Position numbers and translations under genes: made by a program
In this document: piece by piece, positions 554 to 55,798 of the stretch
How positions within the stretch are numbered: the first letter of the stretch is position 1
How the letters are laid out: each line of letters opens with the position of its first letter
Source: Escherichia phage FV3
Length of the DNA stretch: 64,000 nt
Direction: 5' to 3' (one strand)
Sequence record: NC_019517.1
The notes under the pieces: generated by a model
What the model was told of the DNA's origin: nothing
Database searches by the model: none
Seen by the model: the letters and a program-made list of their open reading frames with translations, nothing else

Positions 554-904
554 CTAACCAGTTGTTGACATTAGAATAACCTCTTCTGGTGGCAAAACTT
601 TGGAAAATGTGCATCTTTTACCTCTCCCTTGTGTGGATATTTCAACCACTCCTGCACATTCTAAAGTTTTAACGCACGCTGCTGCTTTTGTTTTCTTTAT
701 CCCAACATCTGCTGCAATTTTCCTTGTGCTTGGTGTGAAGCGTGAATTTCCTCCAAGCTTATACCAGTTGTGCAGGTAGCAGTATACGATCTTGTCATAT
801 AAGTCAAGAACAACAACCTCCCCGGTTGTGTCATTCAAAACTTTTGACATAGACAGTATTTCAAGGGGGACTTTAAGATATAGCAGCTTATCCCCATCTT
901 TCAT
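554..904 (-). CDS. hypothetical protein, possible winged-HTH DNA-binding protein (116 aa)
   Basis: track ORF, last gene of minus operon; basic helix-rich C-terminal half; no firm motif. Confidence 0.4.
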   Translation of the reverse strand: MKDGDKLLYLKVPLEILSMSKVLNDTTGEVVVLDLYDKIVYCYLHNWYKLGGNSRFTPSTRKIAADVGIKKTKAAACVKTLECAGVVEISTQGRGKRCTFSKVLPPEEVILMSTTG

Positions 905-951
905 ATCTCCTGATTCTCCTTGTGTGGCAATTTTCTTTAAAATAGCAGGGA

Positions 952-1506
952 TTACTCCCCGCTGTCAATAGCAAGACTCATTGCAATACGGTATGCCTCT
1001 TCTAATGGTAAGAGTCTCCCCCACACATCCCAACCGACATCAAACTGCCTGCCAAACAACTGCTGTGTGGTTCCGTGAGCATGACCGAACAGTTGGACTG
1101 ATCCGTGAGGCTTTCTGTTCCACTTTGCAAACTGGTAATGGCTCATACAGATCAAATTCTTGTTGTGGCGAAGCTCGTAATAATCTACAACCTCATGACC
1201 GAACTCTTTCATAATTCTGACAGTCGTCCTTGTGTCATGGTTACCACGAACAAGAATAATATGTCCGTTCAACATATTTAGAACATCTGGGAGCAATTTG
1301 TTGATATTCTTATCCTTAGTGCATGCAATATCGCCCAAGTGAAACACAGTGTCTTCCGGTGACACAACAGAGTTCCACTCGGCGATGATTCCTGCATTCA
1401 TACTGTCAAGATTGCGATCATACTGAGATCTGTGTTTTTGACATGAATCAAACTCCATGACTCGCTGGTGGAGAAAGTGTGTATCGCTTGTTACAAAATA
1501 TTTCAT
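952..1506 (-). CDS. calcineurin-like metallophosphoesterase (Ser/Thr or polynucleotide 3'-phosphatase)
   Basis: motifs DTHF, GDI, GNHD, GHAHG typical of the calcineurin/lambda-phosphatase superfamily. Confidence 0.8.
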   Translation of the reverse strand: MKYFVTSDTHFLHQRVMEFDSCQKHRSQYDRNLDSMNAGIIAEWNSVVSPEDTVFHLGDIACTKDKNINKLLPDVLNMLNGHIILVRGNHDTRTTVRIMKEFGHEVVDYYELRHNKNLICMSHYQFAKWNRKPHGSVQLFGHAHGTTQQLFGRQFDVGWDVWGRLLPLEEAYRIAMSLAIDSGE

Positions 1507-1513
1507 ACATCCC

Positions 1514-1924
1514 TCATTTTAGTTTAATGCAGTTTTTAAGCTCACGCTCCATACGGTCCACAACCCTATTTGGAACATCATGAATGCTCTTATTACCGTG
1601 GCGGTTTTCAACCACGATCACAGTATAACTATACCCATGACTGATTGCCATGTCAACATATTCTTGCACATGTTTTTCTTTTGTAAACGTATTACTTACC
1701 ACGACACGGTCGTATCCCATACGCATCATATCTTCTACGTTATCTTTGCACCATTTTGCTGCAAGTGTTACTTTACTTGCATCCCAGTTGTAATTTCCAT
1801 CGTCGTCGTACCAGAACATGTCGTTCTCAAAATGTGGGTACAGCCCCTCTAAAGATAGTGCATTTGCCAGTGTTGATTTGCCAGAACCTGGTAGACCACG
1901 CACGATATATAGCATTTTAGACAT
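1514..1924 (-). CDS. P-loop kinase, polynucleotide 5'-kinase-like
   Basis: Walker A GLPGSGKST at N-terminus; size and layout like the T4 Pnk kinase domain; SD GGAGG upstream. Confidence 0.6.
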   Translation of the reverse strand: MSKMLYIVRGLPGSGKSTLANALSLEGLYPHFENDMFWYDDDGNYNWDASKVTLAAKWCKDNVEDMMRMGYDRVVVSNTFTKEKHVQEYVDMAISHGYSYTVIVVENRHGNKSIHDVPNRVVDRMERELKNCIKLK

Positions 1925-1952
1925 AGTATTCCTCCGTTTTAATTTTAATGGT

Positions 1953-1981
1953 AGTATACATAACTCTTTTGTTCATTTCAA
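1953..1981 (-). promoter_or_regulatory. sigma70-like promoter for minus operon (TTGAAA-N17-TATACT on minus strand)
   Basis: hexamers read on reverse complement, about 25 nt upstream of the kinase ATG. Confidence 0.5.
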
Positions 1982-2024
1982 GTGTTGACACGAGTTTATT
2001 TGTGTGGCAAGATAGAGTGACAAA

Positions 2025-2960
2025 ATGGCAAACGAGGAATGTATGATGAAGTATTTTAATGCAGATGATTTGGTGGATAAAGGTCTTGTAACCAGTCGGT
2101 ATTATCCAGATCTTGGATTAAAGATCTATAAATATGCCAGAAAAGTATTCTACAACAATTTATGGCATTTGTCTCCGCGTTTACTAGAGTGCCGAGGAAT
2201 TGTTGTCGGTAATGAAGGAAATGTTGTGGCATGGCCCTTCACAAAAGTGTTTAACTTGGGAGAAAATTCCACCAACCTGCCTGACAATAAACTTGTGACG
2301 GCGGTAGAGAAAAAGAACGGATTCCTTGGTGTGGTATCATCTCACAAAGGTGAACTGTTGTTCTCAACAACCGGGTCTCTTGATTCTCCATATTGTAACC
2401 TTGCAAAGGAAACAATCCAGGAGCAATGTGGTAATTTAGATCTTATCAAGAAGGTTATGGGCCATGAAAACATGACATTCATGTTTGAAATTTGTCACCC
2501 TTCAGATCCGCATATTGTTCAGGAAGATCATGGCGCATATTTGATAGGTTTCAGATATAATGATTCTGGAATAATGCTACCAGAAGCAGCTTTAGATGGG
2601 ATTGCCAAATACCTTGGTGCAAAACGTCCTCACACTGTGCGTGAAATTCCGTTCAGCTATGCAAAAGAATTAGCTGCAGAAACAAGAGGTGAAGGGTATA
2701 TGATTCGTAAGCCTTACTACCCTTATGATCTGCAGCTGAAGATCAAGTCTCCATACTATTTGGCACGGAAGGCCGTAATGAGGGGTAAAGCTTGGAAGAT
2801 TTGGGATAATGATATCTTTAAACGTGTTGACGAAGAGTTTTACGGCATGGTAAACTTCATTCGTAGAAACTACACAGAAGATGTGTGGAATTGCCTCCTG
2901 GAGCAGGAACGCCGTGAGATACTTGACTGCTATTTCCACAACGAGGACTATATGCAATGA
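2025..2960 (+). CDS. RNA ligase, Rnl1-like nucleotidyltransferase
   Basis: motif I KKNG (Lys about residue 97, as in T4 Rnl1 Lys99), motif IV EGYMIRK, motif V LKIK. Confidence 0.6.
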   Translation: MANEECMMKYFNADDLVDKGLVTSRYYPDLGLKIYKYARKVFYNNLWHLSPRLLECRGIVVGNEGNVVAWPFTKVFNLGENSTNLPDNKLVTAVEKKNGFLGVVSSHKGELLFSTTGSLDSPYCNLAKETIQEQCGNLDLIKKVMGHENMTFMFEICHPSDPHIVQEDHGAYLIGFRYNDSGIMLPEAALDGIAKYLGAKRPHTVREIPFSYAKELAAETRGEGYMIRKPYYPYDLQLKIKSPYYLARKAVMRGKAWKIWDNDIFKRVDEEFYGMVNFIRRNYTEDVWNCLLEQERREILDCYFHNEDYMQ

Positions 2961-3307
2961 AGAAGTTGATTGTGTGGCTGGATGACTTGAGAGATCCGTC
3001 AAATTATGGGCTCCCAGATGCTCTTTGGCTAAAGAATTCCTCTGAGTTTATGGATTTTATTAACGATAAGGGAAAGCTCTACAGGCGCGTTTCTGAGTGG
3101 CACATGGACAACGACCTTGGAGAGGTATTTGAAGGGTACGATTGCCTATCTATGCTGGAAGAAAAATTTGTATTTGGTAAGCCTCCTGTAGTTGACAACG
3201 TGAAGATTTTCGTGCATACTTCTAACCCATCAGCCGCTCGTAAATTCATGCTTGCTGCTGACTCGTTTAAAAAGTTTGGAATAGAGATTAAACAAAACAT
3301 CTACTGA
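2957..3307 (+). CDS. hypothetical protein (116 aa)
   Basis: track ORF overlapping stop of upstream gene; no recognised motif. Confidence 0.4.
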   Translation: MKKLIVWLDDLRDPSNYGLPDALWLKNSSEFMDFINDKGKLYRRVSEWHMDNDLGEVFEGYDCLSMLEEKFVFGKPPVVDNVKIFVHTSNPSAARKFMLAADSFKKFGIEIKQNIY

Positions 3308-3315
3308 GGACACTT

Positions 3316-4077
3316 ATGCGACGACTGATCATTATCTCCGGTGCTGGTTTGAGCGCTGAATCTGGTATCCCAACTTTCCGATCTGGTGGCACTGCAATGT
3401 GGGAGAATTTCAGCATCGATGAGGTGTGTAACATCCACACCTTTGCCAAGAACTACTATAAGGTACATGACTTTTACAATGCACGGCGTGTAGCTTTGGG
3501 GAGTGTTGAGCCTAACCTTGCACATCTCCGGATCGCTGAGTGGTATTCCCGCTGGTCTGGTCGTGTGATCAACCTGACCACCAATGTAGATGATTTGCTG
3601 GAGCGTGCTGGTGTAAAACATGAAGATATTTTGCATGTCCACGGGTATTTGCCAGAAATAGTTTATGAGGATGATGAAGGGAATGACGTCATTAAAGACA
3701 TTGGATACTCTGAGGTAGATGCAAGCGAGTATACTTGGGTCAAGCCTAATGTAGTGTTCTTCGGAGAAGTAGCTCCAAAGTATGTAGACATGTATGACCT
3801 GTTGACTTCTCTGACGAGCAATGATATGGTTATCCTTGTAGGGTGCTCCAACACAGTTATCAATTTTAACTGGGAGCTATTCCCTGCCTGTAATAAGGGG
3901 ACTAAACTACTGATCGTTAACAAATACGACTCACAGCATTTAGGGGAGAATGGCATTTCACGTAGTGACATTTACCAGTATGAGGATCGCGGAATCCCAG
4001 TTTGGTTTAACGGGGCGGTTGACGCTTTCTCTGATAAAACATTCATTGACATCGTAGAAAACTTTATGGAACTGTAA
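3316..4077 (+). CDS. Sir2-family NAD-dependent deacylase / ADP-ribosyltransferase
   Basis: sirtuin motifs GAGLSAESGIPTFRS, TTNVDDL, HVHG, PNVVFFGE; no Cys4 zinc-ribbon seen. Confidence 0.85.
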   Translation: MRRLIIISGAGLSAESGIPTFRSGGTAMWENFSIDEVCNIHTFAKNYYKVHDFYNARRVALGSVEPNLAHLRIAEWYSRWSGRVINLTTNVDDLLERAGVKHEDILHVHGYLPEIVYEDDEGNDVIKDIGYSEVDASEYTWVKPNVVFFGEVAPKYVDMYDLLTSLTSNDMVILVGCSNTVINFNWELFPACNKGTKLLIVNKYDSQHLGENGISRSDIYQYEDRGIPVWFNGAVDAFSDKTFIDIVENFMEL

Positions 4078-4091
4078 GCGGAGGCCTTTTA

Positions 4092-4805
4092 ATGCTGAAT
4101 ACTAAACTGATCGACAACCTGGAAAAACTGTCTCAGCCTGAAAACTACCTTTGGTCTGCCAACTGGGTGGAAAATTGGAACCGTGTAGCAGCTAAAGTGA
4201 AAAAATCATACACACCATTCGAACTTCAGCTGAGTTTCATTGAGGAAGAGTTCAATGAAGTTTTGGAAGAGTTGGAGAAAGGTGATGGTGGGGATCATCT
4301 CCTAAAAGAGGCCTGCGATCTTCACGTTGTCACAAGTTATGCCGCTTATCTTGTTAACGATAACCATGAAAAGTGGTCAAACCTGTTTGATAATCCGCGA
4401 GGTCTTAAGTTTAAGATCGGTGAATTTTATGATACACTGATCGCTGCGAAAAATACCTCTAAGCAAAGAGCGTCTGCTTACCGCTTAGCAGAGTTGTCAA
4501 CAGCTTTGCTGTTCCAGCTTCGCGGTGATGTGTGCGGGATGATGCGGAAGGTTCTAAAATCTAATGACAGCAAGTTTGCACGCGTCAACCATCTGCGGTA
4601 TTCACACGGTGCCAGTGCAGATATGCCTGCTGAACAACTCATCGAGTTGGAGATTAAAGATCTTGAGCGACGCTTTGATGGTCGCTATGAAGGTTTTGTT
4701 GCTAAAGAAGAATTCTACAACGGAAATAAAGTTATCATATTCCTCGACAGTAAAGGTAAGATTATGAAGCCTTCGAGCTTCAAGGATGTAACAGAATATA
4801 TTTAA
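4092..4805 (+). CDS. hypothetical protein, possible MazG-like NTP pyrophosphohydrolase
   Basis: EEEFNEVLEELEKGD...KEACDLHVV resembles the EExxE...ExxD pattern of MazG/all-alpha NTP-PPases; weak. Confidence 0.4.
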   Translation: MLNTKLIDNLEKLSQPENYLWSANWVENWNRVAAKVKKSYTPFELQLSFIEEEFNEVLEELEKGDGGDHLLKEACDLHVVTSYAAYLVNDNHEKWSNLFDNPRGLKFKIGEFYDTLIAAKNTSKQRASAYRLAELSTALLFQLRGDVCGMMRKVLKSNDSKFARVNHLRYSHGASADMPAEQLIELEIKDLERRFDGRYEGFVAKEEFYNGNKVIIFLDSKGKIMKPSSFKDVTEYI

Positions 4806-4811
4806 TAACAT

Positions 4812-4840
4812 AGCCGGGGTGATCCCGGCTTTACTTGTTT
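4812..4840 (+). terminator. rho-independent terminator
   Basis: hairpin AGCCGGG-GTGA-TCCCGGCT followed by T-rich tract just after stop at 4805. Confidence 0.6.
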
Positions 4841-4869
4841 CGGAAAGTATGCAAGTGAGGTAGAAAGTT

Positions 4870-5178
4870 ATGTACAAGCACTCTAGAGATCTTGAAAACG
4901 ATGCTGTGTTTGGTGATCAGATGAAAGAATTGGTTAAACTTATAGGTAGGATAGAGGATAAGTTTGACACTAAGATCTACATCGACAGCAAAGTATTCAA
5001 CCACAAAATATGGACAAATTTGTGTGTTGGACTACATGGGGATAAAGATGTGGTAAATTTAGTTGTAATTAAGTTCATAGTGTGGCAGAATAAGACTATA
5101 AGTTATTACGATCCGCACCTGCTTGTTTACCCGATAAAAGACCTATTAGAGAAGGAGGACTGCAATGCCGTTATTTAA
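4870..5178 (+). CDS. hypothetical protein (102 aa)
   Basis: track ORF with SD; no motif. Confidence 0.35.
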   Translation: MYKHSRDLENDAVFGDQMKELVKLIGRIEDKFDTKIYIDSKVFNHKIWTNLCVGLHGDKDVVNLVVIKFIVWQNKTISYYDPHLLVYPIKDLLEKEDCNAVI

Positions 5179-5434
5179 TCTTGCTAAACCTGTAGAAGCA
5201 CACCAGTTTGACGGAAGCTCTTCATCAGTATCTGATCTGCAACGGTGGATTGATACAGGTGTGTTTACATCGTCACCTGTTCGAACCAGAGATATTCTTC
5301 GCATGTGTGAGCTTGTCGAGCCGTTTGGTAACCTGGTCTTGTACCAAGGGGATTGGTTAGTTGACTTTATGGGAGACTGGTTGGTAATGAGCAAAGAAGA
5401 GATGTTTAAAATTTTTAAGGAAGAGGCTGAGTAA
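5165..5434 (+). CDS. hypothetical protein (89 aa)
   Basis: track ORF, SD AAGGAGG upstream; no motif. Confidence 0.4.
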   Translation: MPLFNLAKPVEAHQFDGSSSSVSDLQRWIDTGVFTSSPVRTRDILRMCELVEPFGNLVLYQGDWLVDFMGDWLVMSKEEMFKIFKEEAE

Positions 5435-6717
5435 TGCATCAGATCAAAACAACACTGTACGCACTGAACAAAGATGGCAGCTACCAACAGTGGAAAGTAT
5501 TCACGGATGGTGATAAGGTTATCGTAGAGTTTGGCAAGCTTGATGGTAAACTGCAATACAAAGAGACGATCTGCACACCTAAGAACGTGGGTCGTGCCAA
5601 TGAAACTACAGCTGAGCAACAGGCTGAGCTGGAAGCGATCAGTAAGTGGGAAAAACAAGTCCGTCTGGGGTATGTTGAAAATATGGAAGATTGCGAGCAG
5701 GGCGTTGACCTTTTACCCATGCTGGTGCATGACTACCTGAAGCGTGGAAAGGCACTTAAATTACCTTGCTGGATCTTGCGTAAGTTAGATGGCCTTCGTC
5801 TACTTGTTGTTTTCCAAAATGGGGAGCCTAAATTTATTTCCCGTGGTAATAAGTCCTACCCTATTCAAGGAAAGCTTCTGGAGCAACTTCGTTCTTTCCA
5901 CTTCACCACCGGGATTAAACAGCTCGACGGAGAGATCTATATTCATGGTCTGCCTCTGCAGAAAATAGTGTCTCTTGCTAAACGGTGGCGCACACAGGAA
6001 GAGATTCAGGCCGAGATCGATAAAGACTACGAGGCAGATAAAAAACGCCGTCATGCCGCAATTAAGGCAGGCTTATCAACATACAAAAACTTCAATAAGG
6101 TAGATATCCCTGTTGATGTTGAGCCTGTTCGTGATGATTTGCGTTACGGAGGGTACTGTAGCTATGACTTAGAGTATCATATTTTCGACATCCCTAGTGA
6201 CAAGGTATGGTGGGATCCGGAAACAGAATCTGGACGATGCAAGGATCTTATGGATGCAGAAGATACCATTACCACTCTGATGCTTGACCATATCAAGGTT
6301 GTTGACGCAGAGCTTGCGTACACAGCTGATCATTGCGAAGAATCTGTTGGTGTATTCATGTCCGAAGGATATGAAGGTACTATCATGCGTAACTTCTGTG
6401 GTAAATACGAATACGGTCAGCGAACATCTGAAGCATTGAAATGGAAAAAGTTCAACGACGCAGAGGTGAAAGTTATTGACGTTGAGAAAGATAAGAATGA
6501 TGAAGGTGTTCTTATCTGTGTTGACAAGGAGGGTGTTGTTGTTAAAATGAAGATGAAAGGCACGCACGAGGAGCGTAGCTATGACAGGATGCAGGAAATG
6601 ATCGGCAAGTTTGTCACCTTCAAATATCAAGCAAGGACAGAAGACAACAACTACCAATTCCCGGTCGGTATCTGCGTCCGAAATGTTAATCCAGACACTT
6701 GGGAGGTGCTGGAATAA
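5434..6717 (+). CDS. ATP-dependent ligase (covalent nucleotidyltransferase), probably DNA ligase
   Basis: motif I KLDG, motif III LDGEIYIHG, motif IV EGTIMR, motif V LKWKK. Confidence 0.65.
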   Translation: MHQIKTTLYALNKDGSYQQWKVFTDGDKVIVEFGKLDGKLQYKETICTPKNVGRANETTAEQQAELEAISKWEKQVRLGYVENMEDCEQGVDLLPMLVHDYLKRGKALKLPCWILRKLDGLRLLVVFQNGEPKFISRGNKSYPIQGKLLEQLRSFHFTTGIKQLDGEIYIHGLPLQKIVSLAKRWRTQEEIQAEIDKDYEADKKRRHAAIKAGLSTYKNFNKVDIPVDVEPVRDDLRYGGYCSYDLEYHIFDIPSDKVWWDPETESGRCKDLMDAEDTITTLMLDHIKVVDAELAYTADHCEESVGVFMSEGYEGTIMRNFCGKYEYGQRTSEALKWKKFNDAEVKVIDVEKDKNDEGVLICVDKEGVVVKMKMKGTHEERSYDRMQEMIGKFVTFKYQARTEDNNYQFPVGICVRNVNPDTWEVLE

Positions 6718-53957: not shown

Positions 53958-54149
53958 TCACTTGTTGTTAATAAGTTCTAAAACTTTCTGTCTTACTTTG
54001 TCAAGGTCTGTTGATTCAAAAACTGTGCGATATCCCCAACTTTGCCCATAGGAGTGACTGCAATCCCCGTAGCACCATTGCTCAATTTGATAGTATTCAA
54101 GGAACGGGTGCTGTCTAACTATGATACCATCCCGGTTAAAAATTACCAT
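53958..54149 (-). CDS. hypothetical protein (63 aa)
   Basis: track ORF. Confidence 0.35.
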   Translation of the reverse strand: MVIFNRDGIIVRQHPFLEYYQIEQWCYGDCSHSYGQSWGYRTVFESTDLDKVRQKVLELINNK

Positions 54150-54212
54150 AATACATCGCTCTCTGTTAGTTTATGAGTATATTATACACTGCAGTTTTCA
54201 GATGTCAACCTC

Positions 54213-54464
54213 TTACAGATTGCTCCAGTACAATCGGCATTTACATTTTGGGCAATGAGGTTCTTTTATGTAATAACCGTCAGTCTTTGGAACACTTTTT
54301 GGTGCAGTTTTAATATTGTACCTGGTAAAACATCGGAAGCAGGTTACCTCTCCGATCTGCTGATCGTTGATCCACTCGCCAGAGTAAAGCTCTTTCTTGT
54401 TTCTCATAATTCTCTCCCAAATCCTCTGCAATCTTATACCAAAATCTCCAGCCAGAAAGCACAC
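54213..54464 (-). CDS. small Zn-ribbon protein (83 aa)
   Basis: CFRCF...CPKCKC cysteine pairs. Confidence 0.4.
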   Translation of the reverse strand: MCFLAGDFGIRLQRIWERIMRNKKELYSGEWINDQQIGEVTCFRCFTRYNIKTAPKSVPKTDGYYIKEPHCPKCKCRLYWSNL

Positions 54465-54658: not shown

Positions 54659-55117
54659 TCAACACTTTTTGTACTCCACCACAATCACATCAATGTCTGT
54701 GGTGGCAAGATTAATGACGTCTTCCACGTGTTCCCACTTTAGACCACCAATACCGCATCCGATTTTAGGAATGTAGAACGGTAATGACATACCTTTGAAT
54801 ACCTCGTTGACTCGCTCAAAGCCTTTCATGATTGAGAAGTATTCAGCATTGGGCCCTGGGTAGAACTGGGTATACAGGTTGATTCCATATACGACCCTGT
54901 TCTTGGCAAAATGCTCCCAACAAGAAAACATGCCCAGCTTGTCTAGATTACCATAAGCAGTCTCTTTGTCGGCTGCCAGTGCTTGAGGGAACTCACGGGC
55001 AATATCTTTCGCTATACCTGCACCCATTGTGTGAAAGCAGTTACAACCGTGGATCATGTGGCCTGACCCTTTCTTGAAAATGGAGATTAGATCTCCACCT
55101 ATAGTATCAATAATCAC
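54659..55117 (-). CDS. TARG1/DarG-type macro domain protein (ADP-ribosyl hydrolase candidate)
   Basis: GDLI, HGCNCFHTMGAGIA and PKIGCGIGGLKWEHV align with human TARG1 GDLF, HCISEDCRMGAGIA, PRIGCGLDRLQWENV; likely GTG start with SD GAGGAG (track ORF runs to 55216). Confidence 0.8.
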   Translation of the reverse strand: MIIDTIGGDLISIFKKGSGHMIHGCNCFHTMGAGIAKDIAREFPQALAADKETAYGNLDKLGMFSCWEHFAKNRVVYGINLYTQFYPGPNAEYFSIMKGFERVNEVFKGMSLPFYIPKIGCGIGGLKWEHVEDVINLATTDIDVIVVEYKKC

Positions 55118-55532
55118 GGTATGCCAGCTCCTCTTCCGCAATTTCAAAAAACTCAGTCCAGCACTGTGGCATATTGGAGTTACCGAAGTGGCTTTCATAG
55201 TAAAGGTTCTCACCACTCGGAAGATAGAAATCTGTTACCTCGTAGAATCCACAATCGTCGCACTCACCTTCTTCAAACTTGGCCTCAACCTTGATACCGA
55301 GGAAGGTGAAAAGTTTATGGATATCTTCAGTTTCGAACTCCCAGTGAATGTTGTTTTCCGCATCGGTGTAGAACTGGATCAGCAGACCATTGTCCAGTTT
55401 ACCAAAATACTCTGTGAAGTAACTTCCTTCCCAGAAATCTTTATGACAAATAATATCCATGCGTTTGCCCATAATAATGGTGTGAGCGTTTTGGGCATCG
55501 TCACGAATCAGTTTTGGCATTTCATAGGTCAT
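55107..55532 (-). CDS. hypothetical acidic protein (141 aa)
   Basis: track ORF. Confidence 0.45.
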   Translation of the reverse strand: MTYEMPKLIRDDAQNAHTIIMGKRMDIICHKDFWEGSYFTEYFGKLDNGLLIQFYTDAENNIHWEFETEDIHKLFTFLGIKVEAKFEEGECDDCGFYEVTDFYLPSGENLYYESHFGNSNMPQCWTEFFEIAEEELAYRDY

Positions 55533-55600: not shown

Positions 55601-55798
55601 TTACACAGGAATTGCTTCAAATAGACCGTTATCTATACCGTCCTTCAGATAGAGATTATATTCTATGTCGGTATCTGTATAAAGGGCAGCATCCAGCATT
55701 CTATCTGTGAGTCCATCCATCGGGTGGAGAAACCACCACCCACGCCAGTCAAAGTAACAGCCTGGTGCATCTTCTCTTACACGTATTCGATAAATCAT
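55601..55798 (-). CDS. hypothetical protein (65 aa)
   Basis: track ORF. Confidence 0.4.
   Translation of the reverse strand: MIYRIRVREDAPGCYFDWRGWWFLHPMDGLTDRMLDAALYTDTDIEYNLYLKDGIDNGLFEAIPV

Follow-up and report, generated by a model that had tools for sequence, protein, structure and literature searches.

A Gln-Type Macrodomain of Escherichia Phage FV3 Is a Candidate Eraser of DNA ADP-Ribosylation

We analyzed a 64,000-nucleotide stretch of the genome of Escherichia phage FV3 (record NC_019517.1; below, the window), in which positions 54659-55117 of the minus strand hold a small macrodomain gene. The phage is an rV5-like E. coli myovirus (Vequintavirus), and over 4 kb around the gene it is 94-95% identical to phages A51.2, naam, and Bas59 EduardKellenberger. 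An original prediction, made from the letters of the sequence, had placed here a protein of about 152 amino acids whose GTG start overlaps the end of the upstream gene. This was confirmed: the GTG is at 55117-55115 and the TGA stop of the upstream 141-codon open reading frame (ORF) is at 55109-55107, giving an overlap of 11 nt. Comparison supports the GTG as the start, since it is kept in other Vequintaviruses, an ATG is found at the same codon in Krischvirus vB_EcoM_G2494, and the alignment of Tk.4 from phage T4 with the FV3 protein begins at residue 1. A Shine-Dalgarno-like GAGGAG box lies upstream of the start and is unchanged in Vequintavirus C9. The ratio of nonsynonymous to synonymous substitution rates (dN/dS) was 0.05 against A51.2 and 0.13 against the 80%-identical copy of C9. 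We conclude that the gene is real and under purifying selection. The equivalent position in phage A51.2 carries the annotation "macro domain protein"; that close relatives are annotated in this way is already known, and the gene is otherwise an expected accessory gene.

The product matches the Pfam Macro profile (PF01661; 26 bits against a gathering score of 22, E = 9.7e-6, profile positions 1-117 of 118) and PHROG 335, labeled "phosphatase" (4e-59). Its best defence-related matches are DarG profiles (PADLOC, E = 1.9e-12; NCBIfam, E = 1.5e-11), which align to the macro part only; the score against NCBIfam antitoxin_DarG was 44 bits at profile positions 9-143 of 338, compared with a cut-off of 250 bits. 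An AlphaFold2 model built with 88 homologues reached a predicted local distance difference test score of 96.3 and a predicted template modeling (TM) score of 0.91. Foldseek returned TARG1 first (E = 3e-10, TM 0.73-0.80), followed by Poa1p and DarG. A macro fold with two glycine-rich ADP-ribose-binding loops is present, and the nearest structural and sequence neighbors (TARG1, DarG, SCO6735, and Poa1p) all fall into the ALC1-like/TARG1-like class. On the basis of these Pfam, PHROG, DarG profile, AlphaFold2, and Foldseek results, we assign the phage protein to the ALC1-like or TARG1-like class of macrodomains.

The original prediction of a TARG1/DarG-like macrodomain is thus borne out at the level of class, but not in the catalytic blocks to which it also appealed. 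Both motifs that it quoted occur in the product; however, the catalytic Lys and Asp are absent, their places being taken by Gln84 and Gly124. The prediction itself had named the absence of these residues on proper alignment as grounds for giving it up, and for TARG1/DarG-type catalysis this is what the alignments give. Residue equivalences were derived from four comparisons, all of which agree: phmmer against the PDB, a family profile against the PDB, an eight-sequence MAFFT alignment, and hhalign against PhiKZ gp104 and Poa1p. A ten-sequence MAFFT alignment misplaced the Gln strand once Poa1p was added and was set aside in favor of the others. In the first glycine loop, N26 of the phage protein corresponds to N27 of SCO6735, N22 of DarG, N23 of PhiKZ AdfM, and an Asn in both T4 Tk.4 and Poa1p, while TARG1 has Ser in this column. 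Gln84 occupies the column of the catalytic lysine (K84 in TARG1, K80 in DarG, and K78 in PhiKZ AdfM), which is filled by Gln in T4 Tk.4, by Gln85 in SCO6735, and by Ser in Poa1p. Accordingly, the strand I-N-L-Y-T-Q84 pairs with I-N-F-P-T-K80 of DarG, L-I-T-K84 of TARG1, and F-P-T-K78 of PhiKZ AdfM. The column of TARG1 D125 contains Gly124 here, Gly in T4 Tk.4, DarG, and PhiKZ AdfM, Ala in SCO6735, and F152 in Poa1p.

Conservation was counted in 88 family members, down to 34% identity. G24, N26, and Q84 are present in 88/88 sequences and H23 in 87; Asp50, Asn80, and Tyr82 are invariant, and T83 is invariant or nearly so. The column of Asp50 is occupied by Tyr in SCO6735, BT1257, DarG, and PhiKZ AdfM, and this pattern would fit a catalytic or substrate-related role of Asp50 that is peculiar to the family.

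The DarG2 macrodomain (Thermus aquaticus, PDB 5M31/5M3E; Mycobacterium tuberculosis, 5M3I) shares the first-loop Asn (Asn22), but it has Lys in place of Gln84, is followed by a C-terminal DarT-binding domain, and has an adjacent darT. The phage protein ends after the macrodomain (152 residues compared with the ~338 positions of the DarG profile) and therefore has no such domain, and no darT was found among the adjacent small phage ORFs by Pfam scan. Human TARG1/OARD1 (4J5R) is similar in length and in its second glycine loop (P-R/K-I-G-C-G), yet neither residue of its K84/D125 dyad is retained. The yeast ADP-ribose-1''-phosphate phosphatase Poa1p (6LFQ) has a large insertion before the second loop, and its residues H23, S30, and F152, which were probed in the Poa1p structures, correspond to H23 (conserved), T30, and G124 in the phage protein. 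Because the Lys and Asp, a DarT-binding domain, and a darT neighbor are all absent, the phage macrodomain cannot strictly be called a TARG1-type or a DarG-type enzyme.

The active site of the phage protein (H23-G-C-N26 ... T83-Q84) shows the same H-x-C-N ... Q arrangement as that of SCO6735 from Streptomyces coelicolor (H24-V-C-N27 ... G-Q85; PDB 5E3B), with H23 aligned to H24. SCO6735 and BT1257 (2FG1/2AFC) belong to a Gln-type, ALC1-like class and are ~22-25% identical to the phage protein. In SCO6735, too, neither TARG1 residue is present, and the place of the lysine is taken by Gln85 (Hlousek-Kasun et al. 2022, PMC9411070); a Gln at this position sets SCO6735 and ALC1 homologues apart from TARG1 and DarG homologues (PMC9411070). 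Thymidine-linked ADP-ribose (T-ADPr) is removed from DNA by SCO6735 faster than by DarG or TARG1, and SCO6735 rescues DarT toxicity (PMC9411070). Its Q85A and Q85E variants are inactive and N27S is nearly so (PMC9411070); mutation of the equivalent Asn likewise cripples PhiKZ AdfM (N23A; PMC13309987). In the mechanism proposed for SCO6735, the Gln serves to place the distal ribose, whereas the reaction is started by a water that the backbone holds (PMC9411070). All three enzymes, TARG1, DarG, and SCO6735, cleave thymine-linked ADP-ribose and also uracil-linked ADP-ribose (U-ADPr) in RNA (PMC9411070 among others). TARG1/DarG-type catalysis is refuted for the phage protein, but the function is not, since Gln-type SCO6735 cleaves T-ADPr DNA and needs that Gln to do so.

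The window contains a single match to T4 Tk.4, the macrodomain gene itself, whose product is 39% identical to Tk.4 over its full length (E = 7e-43, residues 1-150). Both are stand-alone proteins of ~150 residues with HGCNCFHTMG and NLYTQF motifs and a Gln at the lysine position, although T4 belongs to the Straboviridae rather than the Vequintavirinae and its homologue has other neighbor genes. As described in a November 2025 preprint (10.1101/2025.11.20.689424), tk.4 is dispensable on K-12 (45/46 TA sites hit), and no gene but tk.4 was depleted in HIDEN-SEQ on a DarTG2 host; a clean tk.4 knockout becomes DarTG2-sensitive, a phenotype shown in T4 only. The gene was named adfM, for anti-DarT factor macrodomain, and its product was compared with M. 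tuberculosis DarG. The name AdfM was also given independently to chimallivirus macrodomains such as PhiKZ gp104 (Cell Rep 2026, PMC13309987), which counters DarTG2, takes T-ADPr off DNA in vitro, and is imported into the phage nucleus. PhiKZ AdfM resembles the FV3 protein in being phage-encoded, stand-alone, and acidic, but it belongs to a Lys-type (N23/K78), DarG-like lineage of its own (~20% identity, hhalign E = 3.7e-10), with 336 phage records compared with 2,736 for the Tk.4-like lineage. The parts of the two AdfM papers that were available (10.1101/2025.11.20.689424 and PMC13309987) make no mention that we could find of the Lys-to-Gln difference of Tk.4/AdfM.

In T4-like phages, the homologues found by tblastn are located at the tk.4 position, next to vs. 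The gene at this position in Krischvirus G2494 (1501-1956) is 66% identical to the FV3 macrodomain, as against 39% for T4 Tk.4, and this difference indicates that the module has moved horizontally between the Vequintavirinae and Krischvirus lineages. Sixteen records named "Campylobacter phage" (MG065654, MG065661, MG065666, and others) share ~94% identity with E. coli Vequintaviruses and are assigned to Vequintavirus; their Campylobacter host looks doubtful, and C9, the one examined, is flagged UNVERIFIED.

Beyond phage records, a search of 1.84 billion cluster representatives gave 1,287 clusters at E <= 1e-30 and 8,490 at E <= 1e-10. Among the best 150 clusters, metagenomic sequences fuse a Gln-type macrodomain (INAYTQ) to NADAR (P0151, P0187, and P0214) or to DUF4326 (P0151 and P0143). 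P0214 has an additional N-terminal region of ~150 residues. In DarG1 and in the phage factor AdfN, which is encoded by the Vequintavirinae Bas60-62, NADAR is the domain that hydrolyzes guanine-ADPr on DNA, and a Macro-NADAR fusion has the form to be expected of one eraser for both thymine- and guanine-linked ADP-ribose on DNA. We consider this evidence supportive rather than decisive, because NADAR has also been tied to RNA repair and to small ADP-ribose derivatives. The one contig examined for gene context of the fusion, only 1.5 kb long, yielded none, and the bacterial homologue P0057 (Pelagimonas) is a lone gene amid housekeeping genes with no transferase nearby, which is uninformative. When three NADAR domains were compared by tblastn with the window and with ~110 kb of A51.2, no NADAR (AdfN-like) gene was detected, although this negative carries little weight given the divergence of NADAR families.

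By analogy with these relatives, we propose that the phage macrodomain is an ADP-ribosyl glycohydrolase that erases DarT2 marks from phage DNA in a lysine-independent manner, a reading to which we give a probability of roughly 0.6. The Vequintavirus protein would thus have the substrate and role of T4 Tk.4 and SCO6735, as we infer from their likeness. In this scheme, a host DarT2-type toxin would attach ADP-ribose to thymidine in single-stranded phage DNA, and the macrodomain, expressed from a leftward block of small accessory genes, would bind this ADP-ribose and hydrolyze the base-ribose bond. As in the mechanism suggested for SCO6735, placement of the distal ribose and of a network of waters would fall to the invariant Gln84, which Asn26 holds, with no need for the TARG1/DarG lysine. 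Replicable and transcribable DNA would be restored, allowing the phage to grow on DarTG2-carrying E. coli. A DarT-counteracting role, which the original prediction had put forward, is plausible and has an experimental precedent in the homologue T4 Tk.4.

DarTG systems block phages by ADP-ribosylation of phage DNA, so carriage of an eraser helps to predict host range, and such prediction matters for therapeutic rV5-like phages. The macrodomain gene would extend T4 AdfM-type counter-defence to the Vequintavirinae. What the gene adds, as judged from the alignments, is that the widespread T4-type AdfM proteins lack the DarG/TARG1 lysine, resemble Gln-type SCO6735, and have an invariant Asp50. Since these proteins are without that lysine, mutagenesis or inhibitor design based on DarG K80 would not transfer to them.

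Several observations weigh against the DNA-eraser proposal. DarG, TARG1, and the chimallivirus AdfM, whose activity is proven biochemically, all depend on a lysine that the phage protein lacks. The evidence from T4 is solely genetic and has appeared as a preprint (10.1101/2025.11.20.689424), and with only 39% identity to T4 Tk.4 the substrate could have drifted. Macrodomains of the ALC1-like class are promiscuous and accept protein, U-ADPr RNA, ADP-ribose-1''-phosphate, and O-acetyl-ADP-ribose (PMC9411070 among others). We found no DarTG2 experiment on any Vequintavirus in the literature; a Bas54 library appears in the preprint, where it was used on other hosts and carries no DarTG2 report. 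Furthermore, the DNA-contacting K34 of SCO6735 is replaced by Ala33, K89 and K94 are missing, and the mobile loop that bears these two lysines in SCO6735 and was proposed to hold DNA is six residues shorter; the Val25 backbone site of SCO6735 is likewise not retained, with Gly24 in its place. Because of Gly24, Ala33, and the shorter loop, we do not file the phage protein as an SCO6735 orthologue but only as sharing its Gln-type active site; the invariant Asp50, Asn80, and Tyr82 of the phage family are also its own, unlike SCO6735 and BT1257. However, PhiKZ AdfM, a proven DNA eraser, also has Ala in the K34 column and is acidic. Overall charge was considered as a proxy for DNA binding and rejected, since PhiKZ AdfM is more acidic than the phage protein and the measure does not discriminate.

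The protein might instead act on small molecules, as a Poa1p-like ADP-ribose-1''-phosphate phosphatase or an O-acetyl-ADP-ribose deacetylase; in this role, it would clear by-products of phage enzymes that consume nicotinamide adenine dinucleotide (Sir2, or RNA repair with RNA ligase) or degrade ADP-ribose-derived defence signals. We regard such housekeeping as unlikely: Poa1p has Ser and Phe152 at the positions of Gln84 and Gly124, the Sir2/RNA-ligase cluster is ~50 kb away on the other strand, the macrodomain gene has no conserved neighbor, and T4, itself the carrier of a homologue, has a DarTG2-specific phenotype. The same T4 knockout phenotype on DarTG2 speaks against an RNA, protein, or broad-spectrum eraser, whose targets would be U-ADPr RNA or phage and host proteins marked by host defence or by phage transferases. 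Here Gln-type SCO6735 provides a precedent, as it also hydrolyzes protein-linked ADP-ribose and U-ADPr on RNA (PMC9411070 among others), and the family, with its 2,736 phage records and 1,287 clusters at E <= 1e-30, is wider than DarTG2 alone might select. However, the Tk.4-like family has no known link to a defence that ADP-ribosylates RNA or protein, and no ADP-ribosyltransferase is annotated in the inspected parts of A51.2, where annotation is shallow; on balance such a target seems improbable.

Finally, absence of the catalytic Lys would fit a protein that binds ADP-ribose or ADP-ribosylated DNA without catalysis, or that inhibits DarT by contact; indeed, the inactive Q85A variant of SCO6735 remains an inhibitor of DarT in vitro, acting by interaction (PMC9411070). 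We hold this to be very improbable, since the invariant Asn26, Gln84, and glycine loops match those of an active Gln-type enzyme, and the strict conservation of NxYTQ in the 88 sequences suggests catalysis, though it is no proof. A different proposal, which we offer tentatively and with considerable doubt, is that Tk.4-like macrodomains form a distinct lysine-independent type (Asn26, Asp50, and Asn80-x-Tyr-Thr-Gln84) with a mechanism, and possibly a substrate range, unlike those of DarG. If this were true, phages would carry a general eraser of base-linked ADP-ribosylation (thymine-ADPr DNA, uracil-ADPr RNA, and perhaps others) rather than a copied antitoxin. Asp50, which is specific to the family, would then be a catalytic residue of a new kind.

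Table 1. Features of the macrodomain gene, its surroundings, and the Sir2 cluster in the window
Feature	Position	Strand	Basis or remark
Macrodomain gene, T4 Tk.4/AdfM-like family member	54659..55117	minus	152 codons + stop, GTG start
Residues 23-36, HGCNCFHTMGAGIA, first ADP-ribose-binding glycine loop	55010..55051	minus	alignments
N26 codon	55040-55042	minus	first-loop Asn
Asp50 codon (A-D-K)	54968-54970	minus	invariant in family
Residues 80-84, NLYTQ, family-invariant strand motif	54866..54880	minus	alignments
Gln84 codon	54866-54868	minus	column of the catalytic Lys
Residues 117-131, PKIGCGIGGLKWEHV, second, phosphate-binding glycine loop	54725..54769	minus	Gly124 at TARG1 Asp125 column
GAGGAG Shine-Dalgarno-like box	55128..55133	minus	10 nt upstream of GTG, within upstream ORF end; read from sequence
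Upstream 141-aa ORF	55107..55532	minus	PHROG 8157 (function unknown); stop overlaps macrodomain start
Sigma-70-like promoter match, TTTATA-17-TATAAT	55655..55683	minus	upstream of two-gene unit; consensus match only
65-aa ORF, Phage_zn_bind_2 domain	54216-54410	minus	Pfam 1e-22; two genes downstream of macrodomain gene
RNA/DNA end-repair-like cluster	554-6717	both	names mostly from matching layout in annotated A51.2
Phosphoesterase	952-1506	minus	A51.2 annotation
AAA ATPase	1514-1924	minus	A51.2 annotation
RNA ligase	2025-2960	plus	A51.2 annotation; followed by a 116-aa ORF before SIR2
SIR2 gene	3316-4077	plus	Pfam 8e-27
237-aa ORF, "nucleotide pyrophosphohydrolase"	4092-4805		match to PHROG 671
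DNA ligase	5434-6717		A51.2 annotation

The features are collected in Table 1. Because the stop of the upstream 141-aa ORF overlaps the macrodomain start, the two genes are probably co-transcribed and translationally coupled. The genes that precede tk.4 in T4 and its counterpart in Krischvirus G2494 do not resemble this ORF. The neighborhood was tried as a functional clue and rejected: among the eight flanking ORFs, Pfam gives a function for one alone, through a Phage_zn_bind_2 domain, and the other flanking ORFs (53.6-57.6 kb) all belong to PHROGs without known function. With no conserved partner gene, the surroundings are uninformative about the function of the macrodomain. Sigma-70-like sites number 19 in 6 kb, compared with 11.7 +/- 3.6 expected from shuffles, and a minus-strand block of small genes with such putative promoters fits early expression of the macrodomain gene.

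The original prediction also pointed to a Sir2-family enzyme encoded in the same genome. The SIR2 gene is real, but its link to the macrodomain is weak. It lies ~50 kb from the macrodomain gene on the opposite strand, in a cluster resembling an RNA/DNA end-repair system. Most viral sirtuins are found in RNA-repair contexts, and the setting of this SIR2 gene agrees with that. A functional link between Sir2 and the macrodomain was therefore rejected as the primary explanation on account of the distance, the strand, and the RNA-ligase/DNA-ligase context.

Two further observations concern the layout of the window. A perfect sigma-70 consensus (TTGACA-16-TATAAT) is located at 54181-54208 on the minus strand, just upstream of the ORF at 53958-54149 in the minus-strand accessory block. 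The stretch at ~38.8-45.7 kb contains no ORF of at least 110 aa and no transfer RNA (tRNA) genes, a tRNA scan of the whole window having returned none, and it divides the plus-strand from the minus-strand gene block. In Bas54, a ~2-kb intergenic region between divergent gene blocks takes no transposon insertions, as described in the HIDEN-SEQ preprint (10.1101/2025.11.20.689424), and the ~38.8-45.7 kb stretch may be the same locus.
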